Source: Candidatus Poribacteria bacterium
GTDB taxonomy: Bacteria > Poribacteria > WGA-4E > JAJDTR01
Assembly (NCBI GenBank): GCA_028820655.1
Contig: JAPPIK010000006.1
Span: forward strand, 183,427 to 247,426
Direction: 5' to 3'
DNA length: 64,000 nucleotides
Shown in pieces: positions 2,194 through 64,000 of the stretch. The position numbers and the translations under genes were made by a program. Positions within the stretch are counted from its first letter, which is position 1. Each line of letters starts with the position of its first letter. Below the pieces are notes generated by a model. The model was not told the origin of the DNA, made no database searches, and saw only the letters and a program-made list of their open reading frames with translations.

Positions 2194-2745
2194 CGCAACC
2201 AGGCGTAAGGAAAACAGCTATTTGTAAGGTGCAATCAAGTAATTGTAGGGTGTGCACTGCGCACCAGCCTTTTGCTCCGAGGGCGGGACCAAACGAACGA
2301 ACAGTGGGTCCGATAGTGATCCCTCAAGGGAACCGGAACGGTCAAACGTTACGGTAGGAACACAAGCATCCAGAACAATATGGTGCGATGCGGGTGTCGT
2401 ATTGCTGTAGGCAAGCATCGCGAACCTGTCTGAATAAGAGAATAACTCCCGCTATACGGGAAACAATTGCGATATCGGTGCTGGTTCGTCCATGCATAGG
2501 AAGCAATCATAGGCTTATTGGCGGATTGACCGATTTGGAATGACCAGATCCAGATTCTTTACGGCTTTACCATTGAGTTCGTAGTTGAGCGGACCGTCGC
2601 TATCTTCGATGATCAATCAGCGATCATGTCTCTTCTACTGAAGCCGTTGTGTTTTTTCTCAATTCATCGCCGAGTCAAGAATTCTATAGTTTTCAACTGC
2701 CAGAGTTGCCATGACATTATTCCTTGTCTACGAAAGGAGAATATC

Positions 2746-4437
2746 ATGGCACGCAAAGCATCACTAATCACTACATTGCTACCCCTTCTTCTGTGGGGAA
2801 GAACCGCCGTATCCGCGACCCCTACCTCTGAAGAGATCGCCCTGAATGCGCTGGACGGAACAGTCCTTCTGACAATGACGGATGCCGACGGTCGGGCAAT
2901 CGCGTACGGCAGCGGATTCTTTGTTTTGTCCAATGTTGTTGCAACCAACTTTCACGTGATTGAGGGAGCCCGCGGAGGCACCGCCCGCCGCGTGGCTCAG
3001 AATAGATCGTATACCCTCGGGCGGATTCTCAAGAGCGATGAGACACAGGATTTGGCGCTGATCGAGGTATCGGCACCGGATGCCGAACCGCTGCCCATCG
3101 GCGATAGCGATAGCAGGTCGTTACGAATCGGCGCGAAAGTTTATGTCGCGGGCAATCCGCTGGGTTACTGGTGGGGAACCTTCTCCGAAGGTATTGTTAG
3201 CGCCCGCCGTACGTGGGGCAATGGAGCGCAGAGGTTACAGATGACCGCTCCGATTTCGCCCGGAAGCAGCGGCGGTCCGGTTCTTAATGAAAGAGGTGAA
3301 GTTGTAGGTGTTTCCGTTGCATCGAGTTCAGATGAAAGGGCTCAGAATATCAACTTCGCCGTTCCGTCTAACGAACTCAAGAAACTCGTCGCCGAATTGG
3401 ATCCCCCGGCGATGAGCCTCGCTCTCCCTCGACGAGCGAACTGGAATATCGGCGACTCGATTGACGTTGTTCTCAATATCGCGAACGGATCAGACATTGC
3501 GGGATTTCAGGTAACTCTGGGATTTGATGGTTCCGTTCTCAAATATCTTGACGTCTTAAAGGGGGATTACATCATCGAAGGAGATGACTTTGCGCGTGAG
3601 ATCGAGGGCGAGAATCAGGTGACATTGGCGGCAACCGGCTTCCCTCAAGTGATGGATGAAGATGGCGTACTTGCGGTAATAAAGTTTGAAATTACCGCTT
3701 TCAAGCCGTACGGTTGGGTACTGTCCGACCTTATTATGTCGGAGGCAATCCTTGTCGATGCCGATGGAGGGCGATCATATCCACGTGTATCCCATGCGAA
3801 GGTATGGGCGCGTCCACTCGGATTCTTGGAAGACGTGAACGGTGATGGTGATGTAGATATTCTGGATTTACGATCCGTTTTTACCAATTTTGGGGTGCGC
3901 GGGAGGAATCATGCCGATGTCAATGAAGATGGTGTCGTAGATGTCGTTGACTTGGTAAGAGTTGCCTCGGCCATAAACACGCCGCGGGGAACTGCCCCTC
4001 CATTAGCGCAAGAAACTCTTGAGGGACTCACTGCCGCGGACGTGAAACAATGGTTGGCATCAGCCTCGCAGCGAGGTCTGACGGATCCCGCTTCGTTGAG
4101 AGGCATATTCTTTTTGGAGCAACTCCTTAACACACTGCGACCTAAAGAGACAGCGTTGTTGCCCAATTTCCCGAATCCGTTCAATCCGGAGACTTGGATT
4201 CCGTACCACCTCGCTAGTCCCTCCGATGTGAAGATTGCGGTCTACAACACAAACGGAGAAATGGTGCGTCAATGGCACTTGGGACATCAAGAGGCAGGAT
4301 TCTACACCGATAAAAACGACGCTGTATATTGGGACGGACGTAATGGAAGTGGTCAGCTCGTCGCAAGCGGCGTATATTTCTATTCGCTAACTGCCGGCGA
4401 TTTTACGACGACGCGCAAAATGTTAGTCGGAAAGTAA
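2746..4437 (+). CDS. Secreted trypsin-like (S1) serine protease with cohesin-like domain, two dockerin-like repeats and a T9SS C-terminal sorting domain
   Basis: ATG at 2746 preceded by AAGGAGA. Signal peptide MARKASLITTLLPLLLWGRTAVSA. His/Asp/Ser triad context (TNFHV, DLALIEV, GSSGGPV). DVNGDGDVDILDL and DVNEDGVVDVVDL dockerin-like repeats. C-terminal LPNFPNPFNPETWIPYHL...GVYFYSL as in T9SS CTDs. Confidence 0.8.
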   Translation: MARKASLITTLLPLLLWGRTAVSATPTSEEIALNALDGTVLLTMTDADGRAIAYGSGFFVLSNVVATNFHVIEGARGGTARRVAQNRSYTLGRILKSDETQDLALIEVSAPDAEPLPIGDSDSRSLRIGAKVYVAGNPLGYWWGTFSEGIVSARRTWGNGAQRLQMTAPISPGSSGGPVLNERGEVVGVSVASSSDERAQNINFAVPSNELKKLVAELDPPAMSLALPRRANWNIGDSIDVVLNIANGSDIAGFQVTLGFDGSVLKYLDVLKGDYIIEGDDFAREIEGENQVTLAATGFPQVMDEDGVLAVIKFEITAFKPYGWVLSDLIMSEAILVDADGGRSYPRVSHAKVWARPLGFLEDVNGDGDVDILDLRSVFTNFGVRGRNHADVNEDGVVDVVDLVRVASAINTPRGTAPPLAQETLEGLTAADVKQWLASASQRGLTDPASLRGIFFLEQLLNTLRPKETALLPNFPNPFNPETWIPYHLASPSDVKIAVYNTNGEMVRQWHLGHQEAGFYTDKNDAVYWDGRNGSGQLVASGVYFYSLTAGDFTTTRKMLVGK

Positions 4438-4546
4438 CACCATTTCCCTTGAAACCGAGTTTTTTCGTGAAATCTCGGTTTCTTCGCTAAATCCTAGTAG
4501 GCTTCAAGGTAACGGTTTAGAGTTTTGTTGAAAAATACATTATGAA

Positions 4547-4563
4547 GGTGCGCACTGCGCACC
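4547..4563. repeat. ggtgcgcactgcgcacc hairpin (copies also at 2247-2265 and 8395-8412), each preceded by a tgtaggg/tgaagg motif
   Basis: Perfect short inverted repeats located just downstream of the nuoC, protease and nuoI stop codons. REP-like or intra-operon terminator/attenuator elements. Confidence 0.5.
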
Positions 4564-4674
4564 GGCCTCTAAAAGCCCAAGCGGGGATCAAACGAGTGGA
4601 TAGATCAAATGAGCGAATATCGACTGCGATAGAAATTCCCCGCCCACCATTCCTTGTAGCAATTAACTGACGGG

Positions 4675-4920
4675 ATGAAGACAACCGACTCGATTTTCCC
4701 GCTCCAGAGGATCAAGCGACTGAATAAGGAGCGCGATAGTAAATCCTTGAATGTTGATAGAACTCCCAAAGCAAATCCAAATAAAGAATCGGTAGAGGTT
4801 GAGCATCAAACATGGTTAAATCTGTCGATCCAAGGCTTGGAGGAAGCATACGGGGAAGACGAGCCGGAGTATTCTAGCGACTTTATCGAAAAGGTAAACC
4901 CCCACTATTCGGGGAGGTAG
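4675..4920 (+). CDS. Hypothetical small protein (81 aa), low confidence
   Basis: ORF only; no recognisable motifs. Confidence 0.2.
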   Translation: MKTTDSIFPLQRIKRLNKERDSKSLNVDRTPKANPNKESVEVEHQTWLNLSIQGLEEAYGEDEPEYSSDFIEKVNPHYSGR

Positions 4921-5013
4921 TGTCATATTGACTGCTACTATGACGGAGAACCATCGTGGTAGAAACCTTTTCTCATTCGCTCATCACTCATTTGATGCTT
5001 TAGTGAACTCATT

Positions 5014-6198
5014 ATGGCAGCGCCACAACTTGAAAGCAAATTCATAGAATTGCAGCCGTTCTCGGATGAGATGGTCGTGAACATGGGACCTCAGCATCCG
5101 AGCACACACGGCGTGTTGCGCCTGGAGTTGAAACTTGACGGCGAAGTCGTGCGTGAAGCCATCCCGCATCTCGGCTATCTGCACCGCTGCTTTGAGAAAC
5201 ATTCGGAGAATCTGTCGTATCCGCAGATCATTCCGTTTACGGATCGCATGGACTACATCGCCGCCATGAACCAGAACTGGGGATTCTGCCTGGCCGTGGA
5301 GAAGTTGATGGCGGCGGATGAATCGAAGTCCTTTGAAGTCCCGGAACGCGCCGAGTACCTCCGCGTGCTCATCTGTGAACTGAATCGCATCGCCAGTCAT
5401 CTCTTGGCGTTCGGCACCTACGGTATGGACATCGGCGCCTTTACGCCGTTCCTTTACGCCTTCCGGGATCGCGAAAAGATTCTTCTGATGTTCGAGAAAA
5501 TCTGCGGCGCGCGATTAACCTACAACTATGTGCGTATCGGCGGGGTTTCCAGAGATTTGCCGCCTGATTTCCTTGACGAAGTGAAGGAGTTTATTGACTA
5601 CTTCGAGCCAAAGATTGATGAGTATAACAATCTTCTTTCCGGCAACAGCATTTTCATCGAGCGCACAGCCGGCGTCGCGGTGATGGACCAAGAGATGGCG
5701 ATCAACTACGGCGCGACGGGACCGAACCTTCGTGGCGCCGGAATGCAATGGGATCTGCGTAAGGACGAACCGTATTCCATTTATGATCGATTCGACTTTG
5801 ACATCCCCTACGGCAAAGATATGCCCGAAATCGGCGTGGTCAAGGGCGACTGTTGGAACCGATACAAGGTGCGAATGGATGAGTTGAAAGAATCCGTCAA
5901 GATTGTCCGACAGATACTTGAACTTGAGAGCGGCATTCCCGACGGACCGATTGTGGCGGAGTTCAAAGCCGTTCGCCCGCCGAAGGGTGAAATCTTCTTC
6001 CGGAGCGAGGCGCCGCGCGGCGAGTTGGGATTCTACATCGTGAGCGACGGCACGCCGAAACCGCTTCGTCTCAAGGCGCGGTCGCCGTGCTTTAGTGCGT
6101 TGAGCGCATTGTCGGAGTTGAGCAAAGGATTGATGGTCGCCGATATCATTGCCATTATCGGAAGCATCGATATTGTAATGGGCGAGGTTGACCGCTAA
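5014..6198 (+). CDS. nuoD: NADH-quinone oxidoreductase subunit D (49 kDa subunit)
   Basis: 394 aa. NMGPQHPSTHGVLRL N-terminal motif and C-terminal RxxCxSALS...GSIDIVMGEVDR signature. Confidence 0.92.
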   Translation: MAAPQLESKFIELQPFSDEMVVNMGPQHPSTHGVLRLELKLDGEVVREAIPHLGYLHRCFEKHSENLSYPQIIPFTDRMDYIAAMNQNWGFCLAVEKLMAADESKSFEVPERAEYLRVLICELNRIASHLLAFGTYGMDIGAFTPFLYAFRDREKILLMFEKICGARLTYNYVRIGGVSRDLPPDFLDEVKEFIDYFEPKIDEYNNLLSGNSIFIERTAGVAVMDQEMAINYGATGPNLRGAGMQWDLRKDEPYSIYDRFDFDIPYGKDMPEIGVVKGDCWNRYKVRMDELKESVKIVRQILELESGIPDGPIVAEFKAVRPPKGEIFFRSEAPRGELGFYIVSDGTPKPLRLKARSPCFSALSALSELSKGLMVADIIAIIGSIDIVMGEVDR

Positions 6199-6435
6199 AA
6201 TCCGTAGCGATCGAGGGAGTGGATAACGACCGCGACAGAAATCCCTCACACCACATGTAGGAGGGAATCAAGCGACTGGACAAGGAGTGCGATAGAGATC
6301 TTCTTGCCACGATCGGCTAACGTGCAATCAACCGAGTAGTTAGCCACCGCGATAGAGATCCTAAGGCGATAGAAAATCCTGTAATGAGTACCGTAGAATT
6401 TTGCTGACCACTGATCACTAACCACTGTCTTCAAA

Positions 6436-7701
6436 ATGTTTGACCAGATACAACAAATAATTTCAAATTCTCCACGAGTGTCCTCCGAAGCTACCGGAAA
6501 CTGGGCGGAGGAATTTGCCCGGAATCGGTTGATTCCGATTCTGGAACATCTTCCGTTTGTCCCGGCAGGGGTCGCCGAACACTTTCCCGTTTCGCTGGGT
6601 ACGATTCTCGTGATGTTCGGCGCATGCGGCATTTTTGTCGCAATTGTACCGCTCATTCCCCTGGTGCTGGTGCTGGCGGAGCGCAAGGTGTCTGCCCAGA
6701 TTCAGAACCGGACGGGTCCCATGCGCGTAGGTCCCTGGGGAACGCTTCAAACGCTGGCGGACGGGGTCAAGTTAATCTTTAAGGAGGATTTCATCCCTCC
6801 GCAGGGCGACAAACTACTCTTTGTCTTCGCACCATACATCATCTTCGCGTGTTCATTCGCCGCCTTCGCCGCCATCCCGTTTGGCCAAGGAATTTTAATC
6901 AGTGACTTCAACATCGGCATCTTCTATATTATGGCGATATCCTCGGTTGTCGTCATGGGCGTCATTATGGCGGGGTGGTCGTCCAACAGCAAATGGTCGC
7001 TCTTGGGGGCGCTCCGATCCGCCGCACAAATCGTCAGCTACGAAATTCCGTTGGGGCTCTCCATTCTGGTCGTTGTGATGCTGGTTGAGAGCCTGAGGAT
7101 GCAGGATATCGTCGGCAGTCAATCCGAGGGGCTGTTTAGCTGGCTGATATTCCGCACTCCCTTCACGTTTATCGGCTTTTTCGTCTTCTTTATCTCATCG
7201 ATCGCCGAAGTGAATCGGACGCCGTTTGACCTACCGGAGGCGGAATCGGAGATTGTCGCGGGGTTCCACACCGAATACAGCGGAATGCGGTTCGCGCTCT
7301 TCTTCATCGCCGAATATGCGAACATGTTCGCCGTGAGCGCCATCGCGGCAACGTTGTTCCTCGGCGGTTGGGAGGGCATACTTCCGGGATACGACTTCCT
7401 CGGCGGAATGCCGGGCTTCGTCCTTAAGACACTGTTCTTGGTGTTTGTCATGATGTGGTTGCGGTGGACGCTGCCGCGCCTGCGCGTGGATCAGTTGATG
7501 AACCTCTGCTGGAAATATCTCCTGCCCATCGCATTCTTCAACATTCTGGGAGTGGGGATATGGGGATTGATCTTCCCCAAAGATTCCAGGCTAAGCATAA
7601 TCATCAGCATGGCTATCATCGTTGTCGGGATTATCGTCACCTACGCCGTGGCGGGAAAGAGCCTTTCCAAACGCCCCGAGCCTCAGCCGAGTTCAGCTTA
7701 A
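6436..7701 (+). CDS. nuoH: NADH-quinone oxidoreductase subunit H; N-terminal extent uncertain (true start may be internal)
   Basis: ERKVSAQIQNRTGPMRVGPWGTLQTLADGVK and EYSGMRFALFFIAEYANM motifs. About 80 residues precede the ER motif versus about 35 in typical NuoH. Confidence 0.85.
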   Translation: MFDQIQQIISNSPRVSSEATGNWAEEFARNRLIPILEHLPFVPAGVAEHFPVSLGTILVMFGACGIFVAIVPLIPLVLVLAERKVSAQIQNRTGPMRVGPWGTLQTLADGVKLIFKEDFIPPQGDKLLFVFAPYIIFACSFAAFAAIPFGQGILISDFNIGIFYIMAISSVVVMGVIMAGWSSNSKWSLLGALRSAAQIVSYEIPLGLSILVVVMLVESLRMQDIVGSQSEGLFSWLIFRTPFTFIGFFVFFISSIAEVNRTPFDLPEAESEIVAGFHTEYSGMRFALFFIAEYANMFAVSAIAATLFLGGWEGILPGYDFLGGMPGFVLKTLFLVFVMMWLRWTLPRLRVDQLMNLCWKYLLPIAFFNILGVGIWGLIFPKDSRLSIIISMAIIVVGIIVTYAVAGKSLSKRPEPQPSSA

Positions 7702-7720
7702 CATAGGGAGGGATGGTACG

Positions 7721-8383
7721 ATGAACAAGTATTTCTACAATATCTACAAAGCGCTCTACACGGTGCTCATCGGCATGCGGATCACGTTTAAGCAAATGTT
7801 CCAGCACGCGGTAACACATCAGTATCCCTATCAACGTCCGTTTGAGAAGAAGCGAAACGTGCGTGATATTCCCAAGGGTTATCGGGGGCAACTGTTCAAT
7901 AGGATTGAAGACTGCATCGGCTGCAAGAAGTGCGAGATGATTTGTCCCGTCGACTGCATCGCTATCACCACCCAGAAACTTCCCAAGGGGGAACGGCTTT
8001 GGGATAGCATGAACGTGGTTCATCTCAAGGATCGCTCCGAGGTTGTCGGTTTCGTCGAAGGCGACGAGAAGGTGGTCCCGGACACAACGGTCACCGTCAA
8101 AACTCGTGACGACCAATCCCTTGACATCCCGAGCGGCGACATTGCCCGAATCGTCGAACGCAAACCCGTCATCTTCTATCTCGACAAGTTTGACATTGAT
8201 ATGTCGCTCTGTATGTACTGCGGGCTTTGCACCGAAGTTTGCCCGACGGAGTGCCTGATAATGTTTGATGATATGAAAGGCATCGAGTATTCGACGTTCG
8301 ACCGAATGGAATTGGTATTTCCGTTTGCCAAACCTGAGATGTACCAAAATGAGCCTGCTGCCGAGACGGAAGCGACCGAGTAA
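7721..8383 (+). CDS. nuoI: NADH-quinone oxidoreductase subunit I (2x[4Fe-4S]) with an ~50-aa insertion between the two cluster motifs
   Basis: ATG 7721 preceded by AGGGAGGG. CIGCKKCEMICPVDC and CMYCGLCTEVCPTEC ferredoxin motifs. Confidence 0.9.
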   Translation: MNKYFYNIYKALYTVLIGMRITFKQMFQHAVTHQYPYQRPFEKKRNVRDIPKGYRGQLFNRIEDCIGCKKCEMICPVDCIAITTQKLPKGERLWDSMNVVHLKDRSEVVGFVEGDEKVVPDTTVTVKTRDDQSLDIPSGDIARIVERKPVIFYLDKFDIDMSLCMYCGLCTEVCPTECLIMFDDMKGIEYSTFDRMELVFPFAKPEMYQNEPAAETEATE

Positions 8384-8566
8384 CGGCTACTGTAGGGTGC
8401 GCACCGCGCACGAGCGTTTAAAAGCCCTAGAGAGGATCAAGCGACTCAATAAGTAGCGCGATAGAGATGTCTTATTCTTCAATAATCCGGTTTCTCTAAT
8501 CCTCGTTGCATTGTCTTTTAACATGAACCAACTAGCCACTGACCACTAGCCACTAAACACTGCCTT

Positions 8567-9094
8567 ATGGAATTCGCCGGCATTAAATCCCTGATATTTT
8601 ACGCTTTCGCGTTGCTCACCGTTGCCTCCGCGGTCCTCGTGGTAACTGTGCGGAACATCGTCCACGCCGCCTTTTCACTGATGATTACGCTCTTTGGCGT
8701 TGCGGGGCTTTATGTGTTTCTGCAAGCCGACTTCCTCGCCGCAACCCAAGTCATCGTCTACGTCGGCGGCATTCTGGTACTCATCCTTTTCGGTGTCATG
8801 ATGACGAGCGGGCGCCTCCAAATGAGGATTCAGATTGAACGGGGACAACTAATCCTCGGTGGACTGGTCGCGCTGTTGATTCTGCTCCTTCTGTTCGGCG
8901 TGATTTCAAATACGCCCCATTGGGAAGGAATCAAGGACGACGGGTCAACCTTGGAACCGACCACCCGCACCATCGGCGAGATGATTATGCAAGGTGAATT
9001 CCTGCTGCCGTTTGAGGTTGTCTCAATCCTGCTGTTAGTGGCGCTCATCGGCGCAGCGCTGATTTCTCGCAAGGAGGTGCGAGACGAAGAATGA
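8567..9094 (+). CDS. nuoJ: NADH-quinone oxidoreductase subunit J
   Basis: 175 aa, 5 TM helices, position within cluster. Stop overlaps nuoK start (ATGA). Confidence 0.85.
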   Translation: MEFAGIKSLIFYAFALLTVASAVLVVTVRNIVHAAFSLMITLFGVAGLYVFLQADFLAATQVIVYVGGILVLILFGVMMTSGRLQMRIQIERGQLILGGLVALLILLLLFGVISNTPHWEGIKDDGSTLEPTTRTIGEMIMQGEFLLPFEVVSILLLVALIGAALISRKEVRDEE

Positions 9095-9399
9095 CGCTCC
9101 AGCACTATCTCGTTATCAGCGCGATCCTGTTCACGCTCGGCGTATTTGCCGTATTGACCCGCCGGAACGCAATTAGTATCCTGATGGGGATCGAGTTGAT
9201 TCTTAACTCGTGTAACCTGAACTTCGCGGCGTTCTCCCGCTTTATGACGCCTGCCGAGGACATCAACGGGCAAATCATCGCCATCTTCGGGATTGTGCTT
9301 GCCGCCGCGGAAGCGGCAGTGTTTTTGGCTATTATTTTGGCGATTTACAGGGAGTTTGGCACAATCCAACCCGATCAAACGGATACATTGAAGGGATAA
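9091..9399 (+). CDS. nuoK: NADH-quinone oxidoreductase subunit K
   Basis: 102 aa, 3 TM helices. LGIELILNSCNLNFAAFS and AAAEAAVFLAI motifs. Confidence 0.9.
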   Translation: MTLQHYLVISAILFTLGVFAVLTRRNAISILMGIELILNSCNLNFAAFSRFMTPAEDINGQIIAIFGIVLAAAEAAVFLAIILAIYREFGTIQPDQTDTLKG

Positions 9400-9403
9400 T
9401 AAG

Positions 9404-9817
9404 ATGGGCAGGATTTCGGTTGATCTCAAGCTGACAAATAGTCAAGATATGCTCCGTGCGGAAGATGGCATATTGCCTCCTGATCAGATTCGTCAGACAA
9501 CAGCGCGCGGTGTGGTTGACACCGGTGCAACGCGATTGGTAATACCTGCTGCAGTGGCTGAGCAGTTGGGACTGCCTGAGACTGGCGAAGTGGGAGTTCG
9601 TTATGCCGACGGACGGACGGGAACACGCAAGGTTGTCGAAAATGTTCGAGTGGCACTCCTAGACCGTGAATTCACGTTTCGTGCCATCGTTGAGCCGGAC
9701 CGAGACACGGCGCTTATCGGCGCGATTGTTCTTGAAGAACTTGATTTTGTCGTGGATTGCGTCGCCCAGAGGTTATATCCACGAGATCCGAATCGTATCA
9801 TCGCGGAGATTGAGTAA
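9404..9817 (+). CDS. Retropepsin-like (clan AA) aspartic protease, single-domain
   Basis: 137 aa. VVDTGATRLVIP catalytic D-T-G-A motif. Inserted between nuoK and nuoL with 4- and 12-bp gaps. Confidence 0.75.
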   Translation: MGRISVDLKLTNSQDMLRAEDGILPPDQIRQTTARGVVDTGATRLVIPAAVAEQLGLPETGEVGVRYADGRTGTRKVVENVRVALLDREFTFRAIVEPDRDTALIGAIVLEELDFVVDCVAQRLYPRDPNRIIAEIE

Positions 9818-9829
9818 GGAAAGGGTGGT

Positions 9830-12052
9830 ATGGTCGTACCTTTAATCAGCATAATTCTGCTTTGTCCGCTCGCGGCGTTCGCGTTCTTCGGACTGCTGTC
9901 ACTGACCGGTCGAAACTATTCGCGTCAAGACCTCGTCTCGACCGCGGCGATGCTAATCGCAGCAATCTGCTCCTTCCTCCTACTGCCGCAGATTACTTCC
10001 CACCCGGAGCCCATCTCGATTACGTGGATCGAAATCGACCAAATCAAACTGTCGATGGGATTCTATTTTGACAGCGTAACAGCGATGATGCTGCTCGTCG
10101 TCACGATTGTCAGTAGCCTCGTTCATATCTTTTCCATCGGCTACATGCACGGCGACCCCCGCTACCCTCGATTCTTTGCCTTCCTCTCGTTGTTCTCCTT
10201 TTCGATGTTGTTCCTCGTCGTCTCCGACAACCTGTTAGGCATCTATATCGGGTGGGAGCTTGTCGGGTTGTGTTCCTATCTGCTCATCGGGTTCTGGTTC
10301 GAGAAGGACTCCGCCGCAGACGCTTGCAAGAAGGCGTTCCTGACTACTCGTGTGGGCGATGTGGGGATGTTCGTGGGCATGATGATGTTATTCACGAAGT
10401 TCCATACGTTCGCGCTTTACGGCGACGGCGGCATCTTCGCGGCGGTCGCAAATTTGGGATCCGGTGACATCGTTTGGTTGTCCATTGCGGGTGTTCTTAT
10501 CTTCTGCGGGGCTATCGGCAAGTCGGCTCAGGTTCCGCTTCACACCTGGTTGCCCGATGCCATGGAAGGTCCCACACCCGTCAGCGCGCTCATACATGCA
10601 GCCACGATGGTGGCAGCCGGTGTCTACTTGACCGCGCGAATGTTTCCCATCCTGACGCCCGATTCCTCTCTGACGATAGCCTACGTCGGGGGTATCACAG
10701 CTATTGTAGCCGCTACAATCGCCATCGTCAGGTTTGACATCAAGCGGGTGCTCGCCTACTCGACCATCAGTCAACTGGGTTTCATGATGCTGGGTATCGG
10801 TGCCGGGAGCTACGTTGCGGGTCTCTTCCATCTCACCACGCATGCCTTTTTCAAAGCGTTGCTGTTCCTTGGATCGGGCAGCGTCATTCATGCGTTGGCG
10901 GTTCACAACGGCTCGCACGGCGACGACCACGGCCATGAACCGGAGCATCATGACGGCGAACACGGTGAAGCTGAACACCACGACGATACGGGGTTTGACA
11001 GCCACGGCATCCCGGAAGAGCAGGATATGCGCCACATGGGCGGACTACGCCGCAAGATGCCCATCACCTTCCTCACGATGCTGATTGCCACCCTGTCGAT
11101 TTCGGGCGTGCCGTTCGTGTTCTCCGGGTTCTGGAGCAAAGACGCCATCCTGGCGGGCGTTCTGGATCGGGCGATGGCATGGGATTCGGTGCATTACTAC
11201 ATTCTTTTCATAATCGCGCTCGGCGCCGCCGGCATCACCGCCTTCTATATGTTCCGTCTCATCTTCATGACCTTCTTCGGGGAACCGCGCAACAAAGAGA
11301 TGTACGACCACGCGCACGAGTCGCCGGGCGTCATGGCAGTTCCGCTGATCATTCTGGCAGTCCTCAGTTTTCCCATCGTGAACACCTGGTCTTTCAACCC
11401 GTGGTCTTTCAAAAAACATGTGAATGCGCCAATACAACCCCACGTGCACGCTCCCGCGCATGCTAACGAAGAGCGTCCGGTGCTATACGCGATGGCAGGC
11501 GCCTCCGACGCGCACGCTGCCGAAGACGCTGGCCACGGCGCTCATGACGCCGCGCACGCCGAAGACGACCACCATGCTCACCACAGCCCCGCCCACACGA
11601 TTGCAATGGTTCTCTCCATCATTGTTGCCAGTTTCGGCATTTTGCTATCCTATCTATTCTATCATCGCAAAGTATTCTCTGCCGAAGGTGCGGCGTCGCG
11701 TTTGCGTCCGCTTTACAAACTCTGCTGGGGCAAGTATTTCTTCGATGAATTTTATGACGGCGTAATCGTGGCGTTATCCGTCGCTTGGGCAGGGTCTCTC
11801 AGAGTTTTTGACTTGCGCGTGATTGACGGCATCGTGAATCTGGTGGGGTTTGTCACACGAGCGGTGGTCGCCGCGTTCACGGGTTGGTTTGATAACAAAT
11901 TTGTTGATGGGCTGGTAAATTGGGTCGCGCAGATTACGTGGTCGGTCGGTGGGAGGATTCGACGGATTCAAACCGGCGCCATCCAGAATTATCTGCTGAT
12001 CGTTTTGGGCGGTGTCGTGTTGTTGATTCTGATTTTCCGGCGATTTTTATAG
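9830..12052 (+). CDS. nuoL: NADH-quinone oxidoreductase subunit L with two His/Asp/Glu-rich insertions
   Basis: 740 aa. WLPDAMEGPTPVSALIHAATMV antiporter-like motif. Inserts HNGSHGDDHGHEPEHHDGEHGEAEHHDD and HVHAPAHANEE...HGAHDAAHAEDDHHAHHSPAH. Confidence 0.9.
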   Translation: MVVPLISIILLCPLAAFAFFGLLSLTGRNYSRQDLVSTAAMLIAAICSFLLLPQITSHPEPISITWIEIDQIKLSMGFYFDSVTAMMLLVVTIVSSLVHIFSIGYMHGDPRYPRFFAFLSLFSFSMLFLVVSDNLLGIYIGWELVGLCSYLLIGFWFEKDSAADACKKAFLTTRVGDVGMFVGMMMLFTKFHTFALYGDGGIFAAVANLGSGDIVWLSIAGVLIFCGAIGKSAQVPLHTWLPDAMEGPTPVSALIHAATMVAAGVYLTARMFPILTPDSSLTIAYVGGITAIVAATIAIVRFDIKRVLAYSTISQLGFMMLGIGAGSYVAGLFHLTTHAFFKALLFLGSGSVIHALAVHNGSHGDDHGHEPEHHDGEHGEAEHHDDTGFDSHGIPEEQDMRHMGGLRRKMPITFLTMLIATLSISGVPFVFSGFWSKDAILAGVLDRAMAWDSVHYYILFIIALGAAGITAFYMFRLIFMTFFGEPRNKEMYDHAHESPGVMAVPLIILAVLSFPIVNTWSFNPWSFKKHVNAPIQPHVHAPAHANEERPVLYAMAGASDAHAAEDAGHGAHDAAHAEDDHHAHHSPAHTIAMVLSIIVASFGILLSYLFYHRKVFSAEGAASRLRPLYKLCWGKYFFDEFYDGVIVALSVAWAGSLRVFDLRVIDGIVNLVGFVTRAVVAAFTGWFDNKFVDGLVNWVAQITWSVGGRIRRIQTGAIQNYLLIVLGGVVLLILIFRRFL

Positions 12053-12284
12053 TGGGATGTAGGCGGAGGAAGTTCTATAGAGCTTAGGTATTTTGAATTC
12101 TGGCAACCAAAAAACGGATAATTCCGTGCTCGGTCTGGATTGATAAATCCAGACCCGGCGTTGGACTTCACAATCGGACAGAAGGAAAGCATTGTACCGG
12201 TCAGAATTAATTAAGATAAATTTGATTTAACAGGAGCGCCTGTTTCGATTCTTTGTAGTGATGTAATGGGGAGGAATTTATTAG

Positions 12285-13796
12285 ATGCTATTAACGTTAA
12301 TGATTTTTGTTCCGCTGATAGGAATGATTGTTGTGCTATGCCTACCGCGGAACGCAGAGGAAACTATTAAACGCACGACGCTTGTCTTCACGCTTATTCC
12401 GCTCATACTGGGAGTGATGCTGCTTGCGGGATATGACCGGGAGAGCGAAGATCTTCAGTACGAGGTTAACGTAATGTGGATTGACGCGTTCAAAATCCAC
12501 TACCACATCGGAATCGACGGACTGAGCGTGACGCTGATACTCTTGACCGTGCTGCTCGGACCAATATGCGTGATAGCATCGTGGCGGAATATCGAGAAGG
12601 GCATCAAAGCCTATATGGGGTTGTTCCTGTTGCTGGAAACGGGTATGGTCGGTTTCTTCGCAGCGCTCGACCTTTTCCTCTTCTACGTCTTCTTCGAGCT
12701 AACCCTGTTGCCGATGTACTTCCTTATCGGCATCTGGGGCGGTCCTCGACGCGAATATGCAGCCATTAAATTCTTCCTGTACACCCTCTTTGGCAGTGTG
12801 TTGATGCTGATAGCGATGATCGCCGTGTATCTCAAAGGCGGCACATTCGACATTCCGACACTGATTACATTGGCTCAACAGGACGGTCACGCACTCGCCA
12901 ATCCGGTATTCCAGATTTGGGTGTTCCTCGGTTTCTTTATCGGGTTCGCCGTCAAAGTCCCGATTTTCCCCTTCCACACGTGGCTTCCCGACGCGCACGT
13001 AGAAGCGCCGACAGCCATCAGTGTTATTCTTGCGGCTATCCTACTGAAGATGGGAACTTATGGGCTTATTCGAGTTAATTTCGCCATGCTGCCGGAAGGT
13101 ATGGCTTTCTTTACGGACCCGGAAGCTGCAGTGAAGCTGGGGCGATCTGCCACTTGGGGATACGGGCTGGCTATCCTCGGATTTATCAATATTGTCTACG
13201 GATCATTCTGCGCGCTGGCGCAAACCGATTTCAAGAAACTCGTCGCCTACTCCAGTATCGGGCACATGGGGTTCGTCATATTGGGGCTTGCCGCGCGCAA
13301 CGAGAGCGGTGTGACGGGCGCTATTCTGCAGATGTTCAACCACGGCGTGATTAGCGCGATGTTGTTCCTACTCGTCGGTGTGGTCTACGACCGAGCACAT
13401 CACCGCGAAATCAACGGCTTCGGCGGGCTTGGAACCAAGATGCCAATCTACACCGGCATCACCACCTTGGCATTCATGGCATCGCTCGGGCTGCCGGGGC
13501 TTAGCGGATTCGTCGGAGAGGCGCTCGCTCTGCTGGGGGCGTACAGTAAGTATCAGGTGCTGACCATCCTTTCGACAATTGGCATCGTCGTCGGCGCCGC
13601 CTATTTCCTCTGGACGCTGCAGCGCGTGTTTCTCGGAAAGTTGAATCCGAAGTATGAGGGCATCTCCGAAATCAATGGGCGCGAAATCCTGACGCTCGTA
13701 CCGCTCGGTATTCTTACCATTGTTTTTGGAGTTTATCCGTCTCTTCTCATTAACATGTTCAATCAAGCGGTAAGCATGTTGCCGCTCGTGCCGTAA
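12285..13796 (+). CDS. nuoM: NADH-quinone oxidoreductase subunit M
   Basis: 503 aa. FPFHTWLPDAHVEAPT motif, position in cluster, RBS GGGGAGG. Confidence 0.9.
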   Translation: MLLTLMIFVPLIGMIVVLCLPRNAEETIKRTTLVFTLIPLILGVMLLAGYDRESEDLQYEVNVMWIDAFKIHYHIGIDGLSVTLILLTVLLGPICVIASWRNIEKGIKAYMGLFLLLETGMVGFFAALDLFLFYVFFELTLLPMYFLIGIWGGPRREYAAIKFFLYTLFGSVLMLIAMIAVYLKGGTFDIPTLITLAQQDGHALANPVFQIWVFLGFFIGFAVKVPIFPFHTWLPDAHVEAPTAISVILAAILLKMGTYGLIRVNFAMLPEGMAFFTDPEAAVKLGRSATWGYGLAILGFINIVYGSFCALAQTDFKKLVAYSSIGHMGFVILGLAARNESGVTGAILQMFNHGVISAMLFLLVGVVYDRAHHREINGFGGLGTKMPIYTGITTLAFMASLGLPGLSGFVGEALALLGAYSKYQVLTILSTIGIVVGAAYFLWTLQRVFLGKLNPKYEGISEINGREILTLVPLGILTIVFGVYPSLLINMFNQAVSMLPLVP

Positions 13797-13809
13797 CTGG
13801 GAGACTGAC

Positions 13810-15279
13810 GTGACGTCGTTGACAAACATCCAAAGCATTCCCTACTTTATTCCCGAACTGATTCTCGTCGTATTTGCGGTGGGCGCCATCCTGTTGGATT
13901 TGGTGAACAGGGGTAGGAACACCGAGCGGGTCGCTTATCTTGCGCTTGTCGGCGTGGCGGCAACGCTGATTGCGGTCATCGCTGTCGGATCATCGGAAAA
14001 ATCGCTGTTCCTCGGTATGATCCGGCTCGACAGTTTCGCGGTATTTTTCAAAATCATCATCTTGGTCGCCACGGCGGTCACGGTGATCTTCTCCATCAAA
14101 TCCGAAGAGCTTGACCCGCGAATGAAGGGGGAATACTACGCCCTCCTGATTGCCGTGACATTCGGCATGTTCCTCATGGTATCGTCGAAAAATCTGTTGA
14201 TGATTTTCATTTCGCTCGAAACCGTGAGCCTGACCTCCTACATCTTGGCGGGATTCTTGACGCACAACCCGCGCTCGAGTGAAGCGGCGTTCAAGTACAT
14301 CACCTATGGGGCGGTCGCATCGGGAACAATGCTGTTCGGATTTTCACTTCTGTTTGGGTTGACGGGCACCGGGGATGTGGTACAGATTAGCCACCGACTG
14401 ACCGAGATGTTCAGCGCGGGCGAAGCCTATCCGCTCGTCGTATTGGTGATCATCACCTTTATCCTGGCGGGCATCGGCTACAAGATGGCTTCGGTGCCGT
14501 TCCACATGTGGTCGCCCGATGTGTACGAAGGCGCACCTATCCCCATCACCGCGTTCCTGTCGGTGGCGTCGAAAGCCGCCGGGTTCGCGCTGTTCATTCG
14601 ACTGTTCTATTCGACATTCCAGGCTTCCAATATTGTTGGTTCTGTCGATTGGTCGCTTATGCTGTCGATTGTCTCCGCGCTGACGATGACGTTGGGCAAT
14701 CTAGCCGCGCTGCCGCAACAAAACGTCAAGAGGCTGCTTGCGTATTCGAGCATAGCGCACGGCGGCTACCTGCTCATGGGGGCAACCTTGCTGACGCCCG
14801 AGGGAATTCAAGCCATTCTCTTCTACTTCATAACCTACCTGTTCATGAACTTGGGGGCATTCTTTGTGGTGGTGTTGATTGCGAACGAGCTGGGGAGCGA
14901 AACCATTGACGGCTATCGGAATCTCTGGTCCCGCGCGCCGTTCGTTGCGGTGTCAATGGCAATCTTTCTCTTCTCGCTGACGGGCATCCCACCCTTGGCT
15001 GGGTTTTTCGGTAAATGGTGGCTCTTTATGGCGGTCATTAAACAGGAACTCTACTGGCTGGCAGTTGTCGGCTTGCTGAATTCTGTTGTTTCGCTTTACT
15101 ATTATGCGCGAATCGTGAAGGCGATGTTTCTGGAATCATCCGATGAGACGGATGCAATCTCCTTTTCGTGGGGCAATCTTGCGCTGCTGGTTGTGTTCGT
15201 TGTGCCGACGATCATCATCGGTTTCTGGAATACCGTTTATGAGGTGTCGAGGGCTTCGCTGGGGAGGATTGTTGGTTAG
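13810..15279 (+). CDS. nuoN: NADH-quinone oxidoreductase subunit N (GTG start)
   Basis: 489 aa. VPFHMWSPDVYEGAPIPITAF motif. Last gene of the cluster. Confidence 0.88.
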   Translation: MTSLTNIQSIPYFIPELILVVFAVGAILLDLVNRGRNTERVAYLALVGVAATLIAVIAVGSSEKSLFLGMIRLDSFAVFFKIIILVATAVTVIFSIKSEELDPRMKGEYYALLIAVTFGMFLMVSSKNLLMIFISLETVSLTSYILAGFLTHNPRSSEAAFKYITYGAVASGTMLFGFSLLFGLTGTGDVVQISHRLTEMFSAGEAYPLVVLVIITFILAGIGYKMASVPFHMWSPDVYEGAPIPITAFLSVASKAAGFALFIRLFYSTFQASNIVGSVDWSLMLSIVSALTMTLGNLAALPQQNVKRLLAYSSIAHGGYLLMGATLLTPEGIQAILFYFITYLFMNLGAFFVVVLIANELGSETIDGYRNLWSRAPFVAVSMAIFLFSLTGIPPLAGFFGKWWLFMAVIKQELYWLAVVGLLNSVVSLYYYARIVKAMFLESSDETDAISFSWGNLALLVVFVVPTIIIGFWNTVYEVSRASLGRIVG

Positions 15280-37725: not shown

Positions 37726-38784
37726 ATGGATAAGAATATCACCCTTTTATCGACCACAATCCTGTTGCTGCTGCTCAAATGCCTACCGTGGGCGGGCACA
37801 ACCCGTGCCGCAGAGGCAGGTTATTCGCGAGATGTCATTAAGACACTGCTGCCTTTCGATGCAATTCCCGCGATCACGAACCCGCAGTTTGTGTCAGCGC
37901 ACGAAGCGCAATTGGGCGGCGATGCTCCCGTTATCGGAGTGACTTTCAACGGGGAGCAGCACGTTTACTCGATCTATCTCTTGAACGGGCACGAAATCGT
38001 GAACGATGTTGTCGGCGGAATGAAGATTGCGACCACATGGTGACCGTTGTGCAACTCGGCTATCGTGTATAGCCGCGAGCTTGACGGGAAAACCTACACC
38101 TTCGGCGTTTCCGGCAAACTGTGGCGCGATGCGCTTGTCATGTACGATCATCAGACTCGCACGCTGTGGTCTCACATCACGGGCGAAGCTATCCGGGGAA
38201 AACTCGAAGGGAAGAGGCTAAAGATGCTGGCGGGGATGCCCAAAATCGACTGGCGAACGTGGCGCTTGAATTTCCCGGGGACGAAGGTACTTTCCGTGCC
38301 GGTCGGCGCTTTCGATAACTCCTTCTCGATCGAGGAGCAGAGGCGCGACAGCTACGCGCAATATCACGCCGGTCCGGAAACGGGAGTTAGCGGTATGCAC
38401 TACTCCGATACCCGTCTAAACAACAAAGAACTGGTAGTTGGCGTGAAACACGGAGATCGGCACCGTGCTTACCCGACTTCGGAATTTCAACCGAAGCCGA
38501 TCGTCCATGACGCCATCGACAATGTTCCGATCCTCGTGTTTCACGATCAAAACTCGGGCGCCACCGCCGTGTACAAACGAACGCCAGATGGATTGACGTT
38601 GGTGTTCGAATGGTGCAAAGGTTATTTTGCCGTAGACAGCGCGGGAACAACTTGGAACCTTATCACGGGCCTCGCGACGCAGGGGAAATACAAAGGGACA
38701 CGGCTGGAACGGCTGCCTTCAATCAACCTCTACTGGTTCGCATGGGCGCGTTACTACCCCGATACGTCGATTTATGGTCGATGA
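37726..38784 (+). CDS. DUF3179-family secreted protein with in-frame TGA (38041-38043) at the first Cys of the conserved C-P-L-C motif; predicted selenoprotein (U-P-L-C)
   Basis: ORFs 37633-38043 and 38047-38784 are in the same frame across one TGA. HEIVNDVVGG...TTW-[TGA]-PLCNSAIVY matches the DUF3179 HEIVND...TYCPLC core. Hairpin cggctat-cgtgt-atagccg sits 13 nt downstream of the TGA. Signal peptide from ATG 37726. Confidence 0.65.
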
Positions 38785-38804: not shown

Positions 38805-39779
38805 ATGCAGGAAGCAGAACCGATGAATCCATTTGAGAAGGAAATTGCGCGTTACAACGGACACGGACTCGGCGCCTTAGACATCGATACGATCCAGGTC
38901 AATATCGGTCTAAGGTGTAACTTGGAGTGCGCCCATTGCCACGTCGTGTCCTCTCCGCGCCGGAAGGAGACTATGGGCTGGACCACGATGGAACATGTGA
39001 TATCGGCTGCGGAAGAGGTGTGCGCCAAGCTCGTCGACATCACCGGAGGCGCCCCGGAAATGCATCCTCATTTCCGGCGATTTGTCTCCGCACTGCACGA
39101 AAAACGACTGCCCGTGATGGTGAGGACGAACCTGACGATCCTGCTGGAAAGCGGATTTGAGACGATGCCGGAGTTCTTCCGCGAACATCAAGTTGAACTT
39201 TGCGCCTCCTTGCCCTGCTACTTGGAGGAGAATGTGGATTCACAGCGCGGTACAGGAGTTTACGAAAAAAGCATCCAAGCACTTAGAGTTCTAAACGAGC
39301 GCGGATACGGGATTGAACCCGGCCTGCCGTTGAATCTAGTTTATAACCCGGTTGACGCCGCTCTCCCGCCGAATGCATTAGAACTTGAAGCGGATTACAA
39401 GCATGAGCTACGGGAACGTTTCGGAATCGAATTTTCCAGTCTGCTGACTATCACAAACATGCCGATCGGTCAATTTCGGCGCGACTTGAAACGGGAAAAT
39501 AAACTCGAAGATTACAACCGGCTGCTTCAAGCGTCGTTTAATCCCGCGACGCTGGATGGCTTGATGTGCCGTCATCAGATTCATGTCGGCTGGGATGGCC
39601 GGCTCTACGATTGCGATTTCAACTACGCGCTCAAACTACCGGTAGGTGACGCGTATCCCCAATATATCAAGGATTTCAATCCCCACCTGCTTCTGAATCG
39701 CAAGATTCAGACGGGATTCCACTGCTTCGGATGCACGGCGGGTAGCGGGTCGTCCTGCGGCGGTGCACTGGTTGAATAA
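38805..39779 (+). CDS. Radical SAM protein of the ArsS-like family (Cys-rich C-terminal CxxCxAGxGSSCxG)
   Basis: CNLECAHCH CX3CX2C radical-SAM motif near the N-terminus. C-terminal GFHCFGCTAGSGSSCGGALVE. Starts 21 bp after the DUF3179 gene. Confidence 0.75.
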   Translation: MQEAEPMNPFEKEIARYNGHGLGALDIDTIQVNIGLRCNLECAHCHVVSSPRRKETMGWTTMEHVISAAEEVCAKLVDITGGAPEMHPHFRRFVSALHEKRLPVMVRTNLTILLESGFETMPEFFREHQVELCASLPCYLEENVDSQRGTGVYEKSIQALRVLNERGYGIEPGLPLNLVYNPVDAALPPNALELEADYKHELRERFGIEFSSLLTITNMPIGQFRRDLKRENKLEDYNRLLQASFNPATLDGLMCRHQIHVGWDGRLYDCDFNYALKLPVGDAYPQYIKDFNPHLLLNRKIQTGFHCFGCTAGSGSSCGGALVE

Positions 39780-55312: not shown

Positions 55313-56512
55313 ATGAGGTCGTCTGCAGAGATTATTGAAGAGGTGAGACAGGAGATTCCGGAGGTTTCGGTTGACGAGGTGAAAGCGGAACAGGACCGGG
55401 GCGAGGATTTTGTGCTGCTCGATGTTCGCGACGATGACGAGCGCCGGGCGGGGTATATCCCGGGCGCGGTTCATGTGTCGCGGGGGATGCTTGAGCTTTC
55501 GATTGACGATTATGTAACTGACGCGGATCAGAAGATTATTCTTTACTGCGCGGGCGGAGTGCGTTCTCTGCTCGCCGCGAAGTCGCTGAAGGATATGGGT
55601 TACACGGACACGATCTCGATGGCGGGCGGATACAGGAGTTGGTTGACGGCGGGCTATCCCACGGAACAGGATAAGCCGATGACGCATGAGCAGTTGGACC
55701 GGTATAGCCGCCATTTCATGCTGCGTCAAATCGGGGAGGCGGGGCAGGCAAAGTTGCTGGAGTCGAAGGTGCTGCTTCTGGGCGCCGGGGGTCTGGGTTC
55801 GCCCGCGGCGGTGTATTTGGCGGCGGCGGGGGTCGGGACGCTCGGTGTGCTGGACTCCGATCTGGTCGAAATCAGTAATTTGCAGCGGCAGATCGCGCAT
55901 CGCACGGAGGCGATCGGCACGCCGAAGGTGCAATCGGCGACGACGACCATCAAGTCGTTGAACCCGGATGTCAAGGTGGTACCGCATCAGACGCGGTTGA
56001 AGGCGGAGAATGTGCTTGAGGTTTTTGAGGGGTATGACTTAATCGTTGACGGCTGCGACAATTTCCCGACGCGCTATCTTGTGAACGATGCCGCGGTGCT
56101 GACGAACAAGACGATTGTGCATGGCAGTATCTCGGAGTTCGAGGGGCAGGTGACGGTGCTCAAGCCTTATGACGGTCCGTGCTATCGCTGCTTGTATCCA
56201 GCACCGCCGCCTCCGGGGATGGTGCCGAGCTGAAGCGAGGCGGGTGTCCTGGGCGTGCTCCCGGGCGTGGTTGGAGTCATGATGGCAACGGAAGCAATTA
56301 AAATATTGGTGGGGATCGGCAGTCCGCTCATCGGTCGGTTGGTGCTGTATGATGCGTTGCGCATGCAGTTTCGCGAGTTGAAGTTGAGCCGGGATACGAG
56401 TTGCCCGGTTTGCGGGGATAAGCCGGAGGTGACGGGGTTGTTTGAGGATTATGACGCATGGTATGATGATTATTGGGTGAATGCGCCGGCGGGTCAAGAG
56501 GCTGCGGATTGA
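55313..56512 (+). CDS. Rhodanese-E1 (MoeB/ThiF/MoeZ-like adenylyltransferase) fusion with in-frame TGA (56231-56233) at the conserved E1 active-site Cys; predicted selenoprotein
   Basis: ATG 55313 with GAGGGGAG RBS. N-terminal rhodanese (YCAGGVRS C-x4-R loop). E1 domain LGAGGLGS Rossmann. Zn motifs CYRC and CPVC. ...CYRCLYPAPPPPGMVPS-[TGA]-SEAGVLGVLPGVVG aligns with MoeB ...TCVEAGV.... Downstream ORF 56255-56512 is in the same frame. Hairpin cctggg-cgtgct-cccggg sits 14 nt after the TGA. Confidence 0.65.
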
Positions 56513-62452: not shown

Positions 62453-63052
62453 GTGGAAAGGATATCTGGCCGTATGTGCGATGGACAAAGTATGATTGAA
62501 GCTGCGACTAAAGTCGCCGAAGAAGCGCATCGCGGTCAGTTTCGGAAGGGCAGCGGCATCCCCTACATCTCCCATCCGCGCGCCGTGGCGCGTATTCTCT
62601 CGGATGCGGGTTGTTCGGAGGAGCTTGTTGCCGCAGGGATTCTTCACGATACGGTCGAGGATACCTCTCTTACGCTAGACTATATCCGCGAGAGGTTTGG
62701 CAATAAGGTCGCGAAGATTGTGCAGGGGTGTTCGGAACCGGATAAGTCGCTGCCGTGGGAGCAACGGAAGCAACATACGGTGGAGTTCTTGAAGACCGCA
62801 CCCTTGGAGGTGCGCACGGTTACCTGCGCCGATAAACTTCATAATCTTCTTTCCATTATAGCCGATTACGAGGTTATGGGGGACGATGTTTGGGATCGGT
62901 TTAGTAGGGGGAGGGACGCGCAGGAATGGTACTATCGGGAGTTGGCGGCTAGTTTGTGCGCTCAGCCGGATTGTGATGGGGACGGAGCGATTTTCCAGCA
63001 GCTTAAGGAGAGTGTAGAGGCGCTTTTTGGCGCCGCGGAACCGCAGGAATAG
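62453..63052 (+). CDS. HD-domain hydrolase resembling the RelA/SpoT (p)ppGpp hydrolase domain (Mesh1-like small alarmone hydrolase)
   Basis: AHRGQFRKGSGIPYISHPRAVARIL...GILHDTVEDT H-D signature. Confidence 0.7.
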   Translation: MERISGRMCDGQSMIEAATKVAEEAHRGQFRKGSGIPYISHPRAVARILSDAGCSEELVAAGILHDTVEDTSLTLDYIRERFGNKVAKIVQGCSEPDKSLPWEQRKQHTVEFLKTAPLEVRTVTCADKLHNLLSIIADYEVMGDDVWDRFSRGRDAQEWYYRELAASLCAQPDCDGDGAIFQQLKESVEALFGAAEPQE

Positions 63053-63206
63053 GAAAGGGGTAACTGTTTAGTCCACCGGTCTGGATTTGCCAATCCAGAC
63101 CGAGCGGGCAGAGAACGCGCCGAGAATTGAAGTACAATGCTAATTCAGACGAATCGGGGGCTTACATGCCCAGAACAGACGTGCAATGAAAAGGGATTTG
63201 AGGCTG

Positions 63207-64000
63207 ATGACGAAGAAAAAGATTCGTTTAACGAAGACAGTGGAGTGCGCGGGGTGAGCGTCCAAGCTGGATCCGGGTGATCTGGCACAGGTATTGGACG
63301 GTTTGCCCGCCATGGATGATCCGAATCTGCTGGTGGGTACGGAGACATCGGATGACGCCGGCGTGTACCAGCTTAGCGACGAACTCGCCATCATAAACAC
63401 CACGGATTATTTTACGCCGATTGTCGACGATCCGTATGACTATGGCGCCATCGCCGCTACGAACTCGCTGAGCGATGTGTACAGCATGGGCGGCGTCCCC
63501 AAGACGGCGTTGAACATCACGTGTTGGCCCAAGAACCAACTCGATCTGGGCATCCTGCGCGATGTGCTGCGGGGCGGCGCCGATAAGGTGAAACAGGCGA
63601 ATGCGGTGAGTCTCGGCGGGCATACGGTGACCTCCCAAGAGTTGATGTACGGGCTTGCGGTGACGGGCGTGGTTCACCCGGATCGGATTGTCAGGAATTT
63701 CGGTGCGAAACCGGGCGATGCGTTGATTCTCACGAAACGACTCGGAGTCGGCATCCTCACGACGGGATTGAAGTTCAACAAGATCAGTGAATCTGTGCTT
63801 CCGGAGATTTTGGAGTCGATGGCGCGGCTTAACGCCTCGGCGTCGGAGGTGATGCAGAGGCACAATCCCCATGCCTGCACGGACATCACGGGGTTCGGTC
63901 TGCTCGGGCACGGCTTTGAGATGGCGCAGGGGAACGGTGTCCGGCTGGAGTTTTTTGCCGGGGAGATTCCGGTATTTGACGGCGCGACACAGTTGGTCAA
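63207..64000 (+). CDS. selD: Selenophosphate synthetase SelD (partial, continues past window end) with in-frame TGA (63255-63257) at the Cys17-equivalent position
   Basis: MTKKKIRLTKTVECAG-[TGA]-ASKLDPGDLAQVL aligns with E. coli SHGAGCGCKISPKVL. Downstream NLLVGTETSDDAGVY, ATNSLSDVYSMGG, DITGFGLLGH as in SelD. Hairpin gctggatc-cgggt-gatctggc begins 8 nt after the TGA. Confidence 0.8.

Follow-up and report, generated by a model that had tools for sequence, protein, structure and literature searches.

The locus at the end of the stretch analysed here raises a simple question: is the TGA at codon 17 of its selD gene a stop, or is it read as selenocysteine (Sec)? The stretch as a whole, 64,000 nucleotides of Candidatus Poribacteria DNA, is referred to as the window. 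Three features at its end frame the question:

63207-64000, plus strand: selD (selenide, water dikinase), 264 of ~349 codons, cut by the end of the window; assigned by TIGR00476 and PDB matches.
63200-63203, plus strand: GAGG, a Shine-Dalgarno-like motif 3 nt 5' of the selD ATG, read from the sequence.
63255-63257, plus strand: in-frame TGA, putative Sec codon, selD codon 17; opposite E. coli Cys17 and the Sec of Aquifex aeolicus, and conserved in relatives.

Read from the sequence, selD starts with the ATG at 63207-63209, and its frame runs MTKKKIRLTKTVECAG, then TGA, then ASKLDPGDLAQVLDGLPAMDDPNLLVGTETSDDAGVY... (ASKLDPGDL... directly after the TGA), staying open up to the last base of the window. 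Upstream of the ATG, TTGAG.C was invariant in a four-sequence alignment. With a placeholder in place of the TGA, the 264 residues scored 335.7 bits against TIGR00476, the NCBIfam equivalog for SelD (cutoff of 125), and reached this score with only 264 of ~349 residues. Strong matches were also obtained to the SelD structures of E. coli (3u0o, E = 2e-62) and Aquifex aeolicus (2yye, E ~1e-62), the former co-linear with the window protein over 260 residues by phmmer. In alignment to both, the metal- and ATP-binding motifs of the PurM-like N domain were kept (ETSDDAGVY, TTDYFTPIVDDP, NSLSDVYSMGG and CTDITGFGLLGH), and TDITGFGLLGH also aligned with its counterparts; the Asp/Asn metal- and ATP-binding motifs and Lys20 are thus shared with the E. 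coli enzyme. The closest genome matches were complete Poribacteria MAG chromosomes, with 94-96% SelD identity. As regards the C-terminal AIRS_C domain, the window reaches residue 264; the homologue at locus L006 (96% identical) is intact to residue 349, with the C-terminus ...EIVVSG, and close homologues carry PF02769. The Sec-type SelD proteins of A. aeolicus and Haemophilus influenzae belong to the same AIRS and AIRS_C fold family. Every SelD membership test that the partial sequence permits came out positive, as did the comparative test for a Sec-encoding UGA described below. The end of the window is the 5' three-quarters of a Candidatus Poribacteria selD, and its predicted product is a standard Sec-type bacterial SelD.

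A reading made previously from the sequence alone (the sequence-only reading) had placed the TGA at the equivalent of E. coli Cys17. This placement was upheld. The phmmer alignment with E. coli SelD ran without a gap over residues 1-35, so that the TGA of codon 17 lies opposite Cys17 and Lys20 lies opposite Lys20 (HGAGCGCK in E. coli, ECAG[U]ASK in the window), and the string C-A-G-U-A-S-K given by that reading is exact. With Cys at position 17, in the motif G-A-G-C-G-C-K, the E. coli enzyme needs no recoding, unlike the window SelD. The A. aeolicus protein, a natural selenoprotein represented in the PDB by its Sec-to-Cys variant (2yye/2zod), has Sec at the same position of the Gly-rich loop and Lys three residues later (S-G-U-A-A-K, as against A-G-U-A-S-K here). 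The window SelD differs from known Sec-type SelD in having a Cys three residues before the Sec (C-A-G-U) and Ser where E. coli has Cys19. Among its relatives, the subgroup to which it belongs (codons 14-20, 63246-63266) reads C-A-G-U-A-S/A-K, with Ser or Ala in place of Cys19; Planctomycetota-type relatives read G-G-G-U-A-C-K, and in some from Chloroflexota and Clostridia both flanking Cys are absent.

An early in-frame stop in a single sequence resembles a nonsense mutation, and selD might accordingly be a pseudogene cut at codon 17. Against this, the identical TGA was found at codon 17 in 76 of the 80 best genome relatives (TGC or TGT in the other four) and in 63 of 79 scorable metagenome relatives (again TGC or TGT in the others), or 139 of 159 combined, with TGC/TGT in 20. 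The relatives with TGA span Acidobacteriota, Firmicutes, Gemmatimonadota, Planctomycetota, Chloroflexota and others. Downstream of the TGA, 247 codons are intact and 94-96% identical to those of relatives, with a GC3 of 0.74, typical for coding sequence here. The pseudogene interpretation, and with it truncation of selD at the TGA, the outcome that the sequence-only reading had set against its own claim, is exceedingly improbable in our estimate and effectively refuted by conservation. The split between TGA and TGC/TGT is instead the classical Sec/Cys signature; the sequence-only reading had called this a well-known Sec/Cys variable site. Sec/Cys alternation at this position of SelD has been textbook knowledge since the 1990s. 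The signature agrees with a published survey that counts Sec in 19% of SelD genes from prokaryotes and places it "always in the same position" (PMC4561486), and no bacterial selenoproteins are more widespread than SelD and FdhA (PMC5029168).

Translation could also start 3' of the TGA, at Met36 (63312) or Leu21, which would make the first 17 codons an untranslated leader. Automatic gene callers do give such starts (P0002 MDDPNLL, P0005 MDPGDL, and the NCBI model P0039 MLENLP). The region before the TGA nevertheless behaves as coding sequence. An ATG stands exactly 16 codons before the TGA in all 16 Poribacteria sequences (the window, L001, L002, L006-L015 and L086-L088), and variable sites in those 16 codons numbered 7, 3 and 15 at codon positions 1, 2 and 3, respectively. 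Variation mostly at third positions indicates a translated peptide under purifying selection, neither a leader nor part of a dead gene. The motif LT....CAG-U-A.K is conserved across phyla among SelD relatives, and a protein started downstream would be without both Cys/Sec17 and Lys20. Mutagenesis of E. coli SelD has established that Cys/Sec17 and Lys20 are required for catalysis. We therefore regard a downstream start as very improbable.

Two further in-frame TGAs, and one TGA cited earlier as a normal stop, bear on whether the codon has changed meaning throughout the genome:

55313-56512, plus strand: rhodanese-MoeB/ThiF-type adenylyltransferase (NF006444), in-frame TGA at 56231-56233, terminal TGA at 56510.
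37726-38784, plus strand: DUF3179 protein (PF11376), in-frame TGA at 38041-38043 within W-U-P-L-C, terminal TGA at 38782.
9091-9094, plus strand: ATGA overlap of nuoJ and nuoK (nuoJ stop TGA 9092-9094, nuoK ATG 9091-9093).

Genome-wide reassignment of UGA to Trp or Gly, in place of recoding site by site, would account for these in-frame TGAs and for that of selD, but nothing beyond the three speaks for it. Under the standard code, all long conserved genes of the window are open and over 40 of its ORFs have matches to full-length family profiles. TGA terminates at least 13 family-supported genes, often right after the end of the profile. The HATPase_c match of a histidine kinase (110/111) ends two residues before its terminal TGA, and the profile match of the DUF3179 gene (2-292 of 292) ends five residues before its own. 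At the nuoJ/nuoK overlap, located at 9091-9094, the nuoJ product covers the whole of PF00499 (1-146 of 146) ahead of the TGA, and in the following ORF, nuoK, the match to PF00420 starts at residue 5; this agrees with the earlier citation of the overlap as a normal stop. When the sense strands of the window were scanned for TGAs with coding-like composition on both sides, the only plausible cases were those at 38041, 56231 and 63255, each standing in for a Cys that is catalytic or redox-active in a known Sec/Cys family. The at least 13 family-supported genes ending in TGA thus exclude genome-wide reassignment in the window; the sequence-only reading had called it unlikely, and we give it practically no probability.

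Taken from the sequence comparisons, Sec at the Cys17-equivalent site of SelD is strongly supported as the predicted reading, and so is a double role of UGA here as both Sec codon and stop. The best explanation overall, which we hold with high confidence, is a Poribacteria selD whose UGA codon 17 would be decoded as Sec, with UGA a normal stop elsewhere.

The complex I operon to which nuoJ and nuoK belong (951-15279) comprises nuoB, nuoC, nuoD and nuoH-nuoN (H, I, J, K, L, M, N), with nuoE, nuoF and nuoG missing from this run. A 636-codon ORF (2530-4437) interrupts the operon after nuoC and before nuoD; its product is a trypsin-like protease that also carries cohesin, dockerin, FlgD-Ig and T9SS sorting-tail domains.

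The proposed course of selD translation is as follows: initiation would take place at the ATG at 63207, and at codon 17 the UGA would be read as selenocysteine, within the N-terminal glycine-rich catalytic loop C-A-G-U-A-S-K and three residues before the catalytic Lys. Past the Sec, the ribosome would proceed into the AIR-synthase-like domains, while UGA elsewhere in the same genome would act as an ordinary stop codon. Recoding would be directed in cis by a bacterial SECIS element just downstream, most probably an 8-bp stem with a CGGGU loop at 63266-63286, to which SelB carrying Sec-tRNA(Sec) would bind. The structures considered for this role are:

63266-63286, plus strand: hairpin H1, putative bacterial SECIS (5' arm 63266-63273, loop CGGGU 63274-63278, 3' arm 63279-63286).
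63259-63300, plus strand: optional extended structure, a lower 7-bp stem (63259-63265 with 63294-63300) around H1, from the minimum-free-energy fold.
63282-63302, plus strand: position of hairpin H2, in codons L-A-Q-V-L-x, degenerate here, with three contiguous pairs in the window.

The stem of H1 has eight base pairs, two of them G-U, and begins 8 nt (GCGUCCAA) after the selD TGA; the loop begins 16 nt past the UGA. The bSECISearch model of Zhang and Gladyshev, from 2005, reportedly looks for a stem-loop immediately 3' of the UGA with its apical loop ~16-37 nt away and a G early in the loop; H1, with 8 bp and a CGGGU loop starting at 16 nt, has these properties, and it is the only long hairpin (≥7 bp) within the SECIS-permitted interval of the window selD. 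The E. coli fdhF-type SECIS is likewise a stem-loop in the coding sequence directly 3' of the UGA, and H1 shares with it G-G-U in the apical loop ~16-18 nt after the UGA and an optional longer lower stem that begins at the UGA; hairpins in the coding region after the UGA occur in Aquifex and H. influenzae selD. H1 is putative and differs from the fdhF type in having no bulged U in the upper stem, a CGGGU loop instead of GGUC, and a spacer of 8 instead of 11 nt.

The statistical case for H1 is modest. In its favour, an uninterrupted hairpin of at least 8 bp at the same distance, with a G early in the loop, followed only 1.5% of the 2,194 TGA trinucleotides of the window. Against it, 4.8% of synonymous recodings of the same peptide gave all 8/8 pairs. 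The fold energy of the region did not differ significantly from dinucleotide shuffles (z -0.8 to -1.2). Rfam returned no match at gathering score in the whole window and noise only for 63150-63450 at E ≤10, with no SECIS family from either search. Across 15 Poribacteria sequences, 82% of the cells of H1 were paired, as compared with ≤45% for slid controls. The apical four pairs were always paired, one of them through a compensatory change from A-U to C-G by which the protein acquires two substitutions (D to A, D to E), and the only freely varying base of the loop was the third position of the Gly codon. The pairing follows in part from the peptide L-D-P-G-D-L, whose codons themselves form a palindrome; the constancy of this peptide accounts for most of the conservation of H1 among Poribacteria, and H1 is just modestly better than the amino-acid sequence alone would yield. 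Several Poribacteria relatives (e.g. L007, L010-L015) have a disrupted lower stem, and this part of the extended structure was not treated as conserved.

Across the selD family a second hairpin competes for the same role. Among the 5' regions of Sec-type selD (70 distinct sequences), H2 had the best support of any helix; it lies at columns 28-48 counted from the U of UGA and with a GUU loop, ~17 nt further downstream than H1 and used by most other Sec-type selD. Its covariation was 0.345, against ≤0.157 for slid controls, and the third base of its Ala codon covaries with the residue after A-Q-V-L (GCC/GGC, GCU/AGC, GCG/CGC, GCA/UGC). The functional SECIS of the window gene could then be something other than H1: the remnant of H2, a two-stem structure at 63259-63300, or an element that simple folding cannot recognise. 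Such a reading gains from the comparison of the two hairpins in the same 70 genes (77% of H2 paired versus 58% of H1, covariation 0.345 versus 0.157), from the equal overall length of H1-type stems in Sec-type and Cys-type genes (4.7 bp), and from the partial dependence of H1 on the peptide. It loses in Poribacteria themselves, where H2 was no better than shuffled controls and is reduced to three contiguous pairs in the window, and where conservation does not reach the lower stem of the two-stem structure.

Uninterrupted stems were then compared at the two defined positions in 117 distinct Sec-type and 18 Cys-type selD genes. A hairpin of at least 7 bp at H1 or H2 was present in 89% of the Sec-type but 11% of the Cys-type genes (Mann-Whitney p = 2e-9), and in Sec-type genes the lengths of the two stems were anticorrelated (Spearman rho = -0.60, without correction for phylogeny). 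A strong H1 was also seen in several other lineages whose H2 is weak. Sec-type selD thus appear to need one strong hairpin, which here is H1. This test, which does discriminate, superseded a comparison of the fold energy of selD 5' regions, in which Sec-type and Cys-type genes did not differ (p = 0.53) and which is confounded by GC content. Candidate structures also included a third hairpin in Poribacteria, with a loop that starts 39 nt from the U of UGA; it was rejected, being composed almost entirely of G-U pairs and absent from the window. In the comparison of window positions 63255-63310 with loci L001-L165, the strong hairpin of Sec-type selD seemed to fall at either of two sites, L069 and L103 being among the loci with the proximal one.

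On balance, H1 is probably the SECIS of the window selD, a modelled assignment that we make with moderate confidence, and a functional element other than H1 is unlikely though far from negligible. The sequence-only reading, which had pointed to a hairpin 8 nt after the TGA, was right about its 8 bp and its loop, given here as CGGGU, and the core is conserved in the clade; the significance is modest, and this is not the hairpin of most Sec-type selD. The likely loop of the window gene starts 16 nt after the UGA, as compared with about +33 nt in most sampled Sec-type selD. It is conceivable, at slightly short of an even chance, that the selD SECIS has two alternative positions according to lineage and that the recoding signal moved while the Sec codon stayed. 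The proximal position, which we propose equally tentatively, would fall in the codons L-D/G-P-G-D/E-L, with the loop ~16-20 nt after the UGA, in Poribacteria, some Gemmatimonadota and others. The distal position, put forward with the same reserve, would fall in the codons A-Q-V-L-x, its GUU loop starting 33 nt past the UGA, in most Acidobacteriota, Firmicutes, Planctomycetota and Chloroflexota.

The other two in-frame TGAs lie in families where Sec is known. The adenylyltransferase gene, with an N-terminal rhodanese domain, scored 537.8 bits against NF006444 (MoeB) over 55313-56512 when read through its TGA, which aligns with Cys184 of E. coli ThiF; in the close relative at L001, the MoeB-like gene breaks into two ORFs at this very point. 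The rhodanese domain of this fusion keeps its own Cys (CAGGVRS). The DUF3179 gene read through its TGA scored 256 bits against PF11376, and is followed by a further gene of interest:

38805-39779, directly 3' of the DUF3179 gene: ArsS-type radical SAM gene, Cys form (TIGR04167, 416.8 bits).

This last family is annotated as a "(seleno)protein", and the member here has Cys (G-S-S-C-G-G) at the C-terminal Sec site. MoeB, DUF3179 (UxxC/T) and TIGR04167 (GxxU) are all among the known prokaryotic selenoprotein families in a 2026 review (PMC13188914). The sequence-only reading had offered a Sec-containing SelD as an internal positive control for the other two TGAs, and it serves as one: both lie in published selenoprotein families and become credible Sec codons. 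It had also suggested comparing the three putative SECIS hairpins for a shared structure, and they prove to have comparable geometry and a common loop start. The hairpin after the MoeB-like TGA (within 56231-56265) has 6 bp and the loop CGUGCU, and that after the DUF3179 TGA (within 38041-38075) has 7 bp and the loop CGUGU, each with the loop starting 20 nt after the UGA. With the CGGGU of selD, all three loops begin CG(U/G)G and start 16-20 nt after the UGA. On this model, CG(U/G)G at the start of the loop may be the SelB recognition motif of this organism.

The three in-frame TGAs lie within 25.2 kb, in accord with the earlier statement that three selenium-linked genes fall within 26 kb; a selenium gene cluster they are not. 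A "selenium island" or operon of the three genes was considered and rejected. Between them are a GH32 enzyme, an ABC ATPase, a DUF3500 protein, a TPR/cytochrome protein, an M28 peptidase, a PhyH protein, ABC permeases, a heparinase-like protein and an HD phosphohydrolase, and the linkage of selD and MoeB (~7 kb apart) is confined to the closest relatives, being kept in L001 (94% identity) but not in L002 (79% identity). Unrelated intervening genes and shallow synteny indicate co-location, not a functional cluster.

Extension of the locus, which the sequence-only reading had proposed for recovery of the SelD C-terminus and of neighbouring selenium genes, was carried out through relatives. No record matched the HD protein exactly, and the only identical record of the heparinase-like protein came from an NCBI contig of 4.2 kb (GCA_028823835.1), which stops short of selD; the SelD C-terminus and downstream genes were taken from relatives of 94-96% identity (L001, L006). 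The C-terminus was recovered in this way, from L006. Downstream of selD in L001 and L002 are two small ORFs and genes for a YmdB-like phosphoesterase, XseA, XseB, Dxs and an FtsJ-like methyltransferase; selA, selB, selC, ybbB and yqeB/C were not found near selD in close relatives, the first three not within 10 kb of it. No selA, selB or tRNA-Sec was found within the window, and ARAGORN detected no tRNA-Sec either there or in 12 Poribacteria loci covered to 10 kb from selD. From the three Sec-family genes with conserved TGAs, together with the Sec-containing hydrogenase already reported for Poribacteria (PMC13582414), we infer that the Sec machinery is present in the genome.

Upstream of selD, a scan of 62900-63400 for promoter and terminator consensus returned no sites. 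Between the HD-domain gene and selD lies a perfect 11-bp inverted repeat, CGGTCTGGATT-tgcc-AATCCAGACCG (63077-63102), its start 24 nt past the HD stop codon and its end 104 nt short of the selD ATG. No T tract accompanies it, and the terminator scan did not call it; it may be an element of the terminator or operator kind.

A Sec-type SelD is an ordinary, long-known form of the enzyme, met here in the genome of a sponge-associated Poribacteria member, and its recognition is correct but neither novel nor surprising and changes no concept. Its main value lies in annotation, because public gene models of this protein are N-terminally truncated. Poribacteria SelD models (P0002, P0005 and P0039, the NCBI "selenide, water dikinase SelD") start at Met36, Leu21 or further downstream; starting after the TGA, they are missing the catalytic Sec and Lys loop, and the Sec form goes unannotated in Poribacteria. 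Recognising the Sec codon would restore the true N-terminus of SelD. The finding also supports Sec decoding in Poribacteria, a phylum of sponge symbionts, and with it the credibility of the other two in-frame TGAs of the window as Sec codons. It is useful both as an annotation fix and as an internal control.
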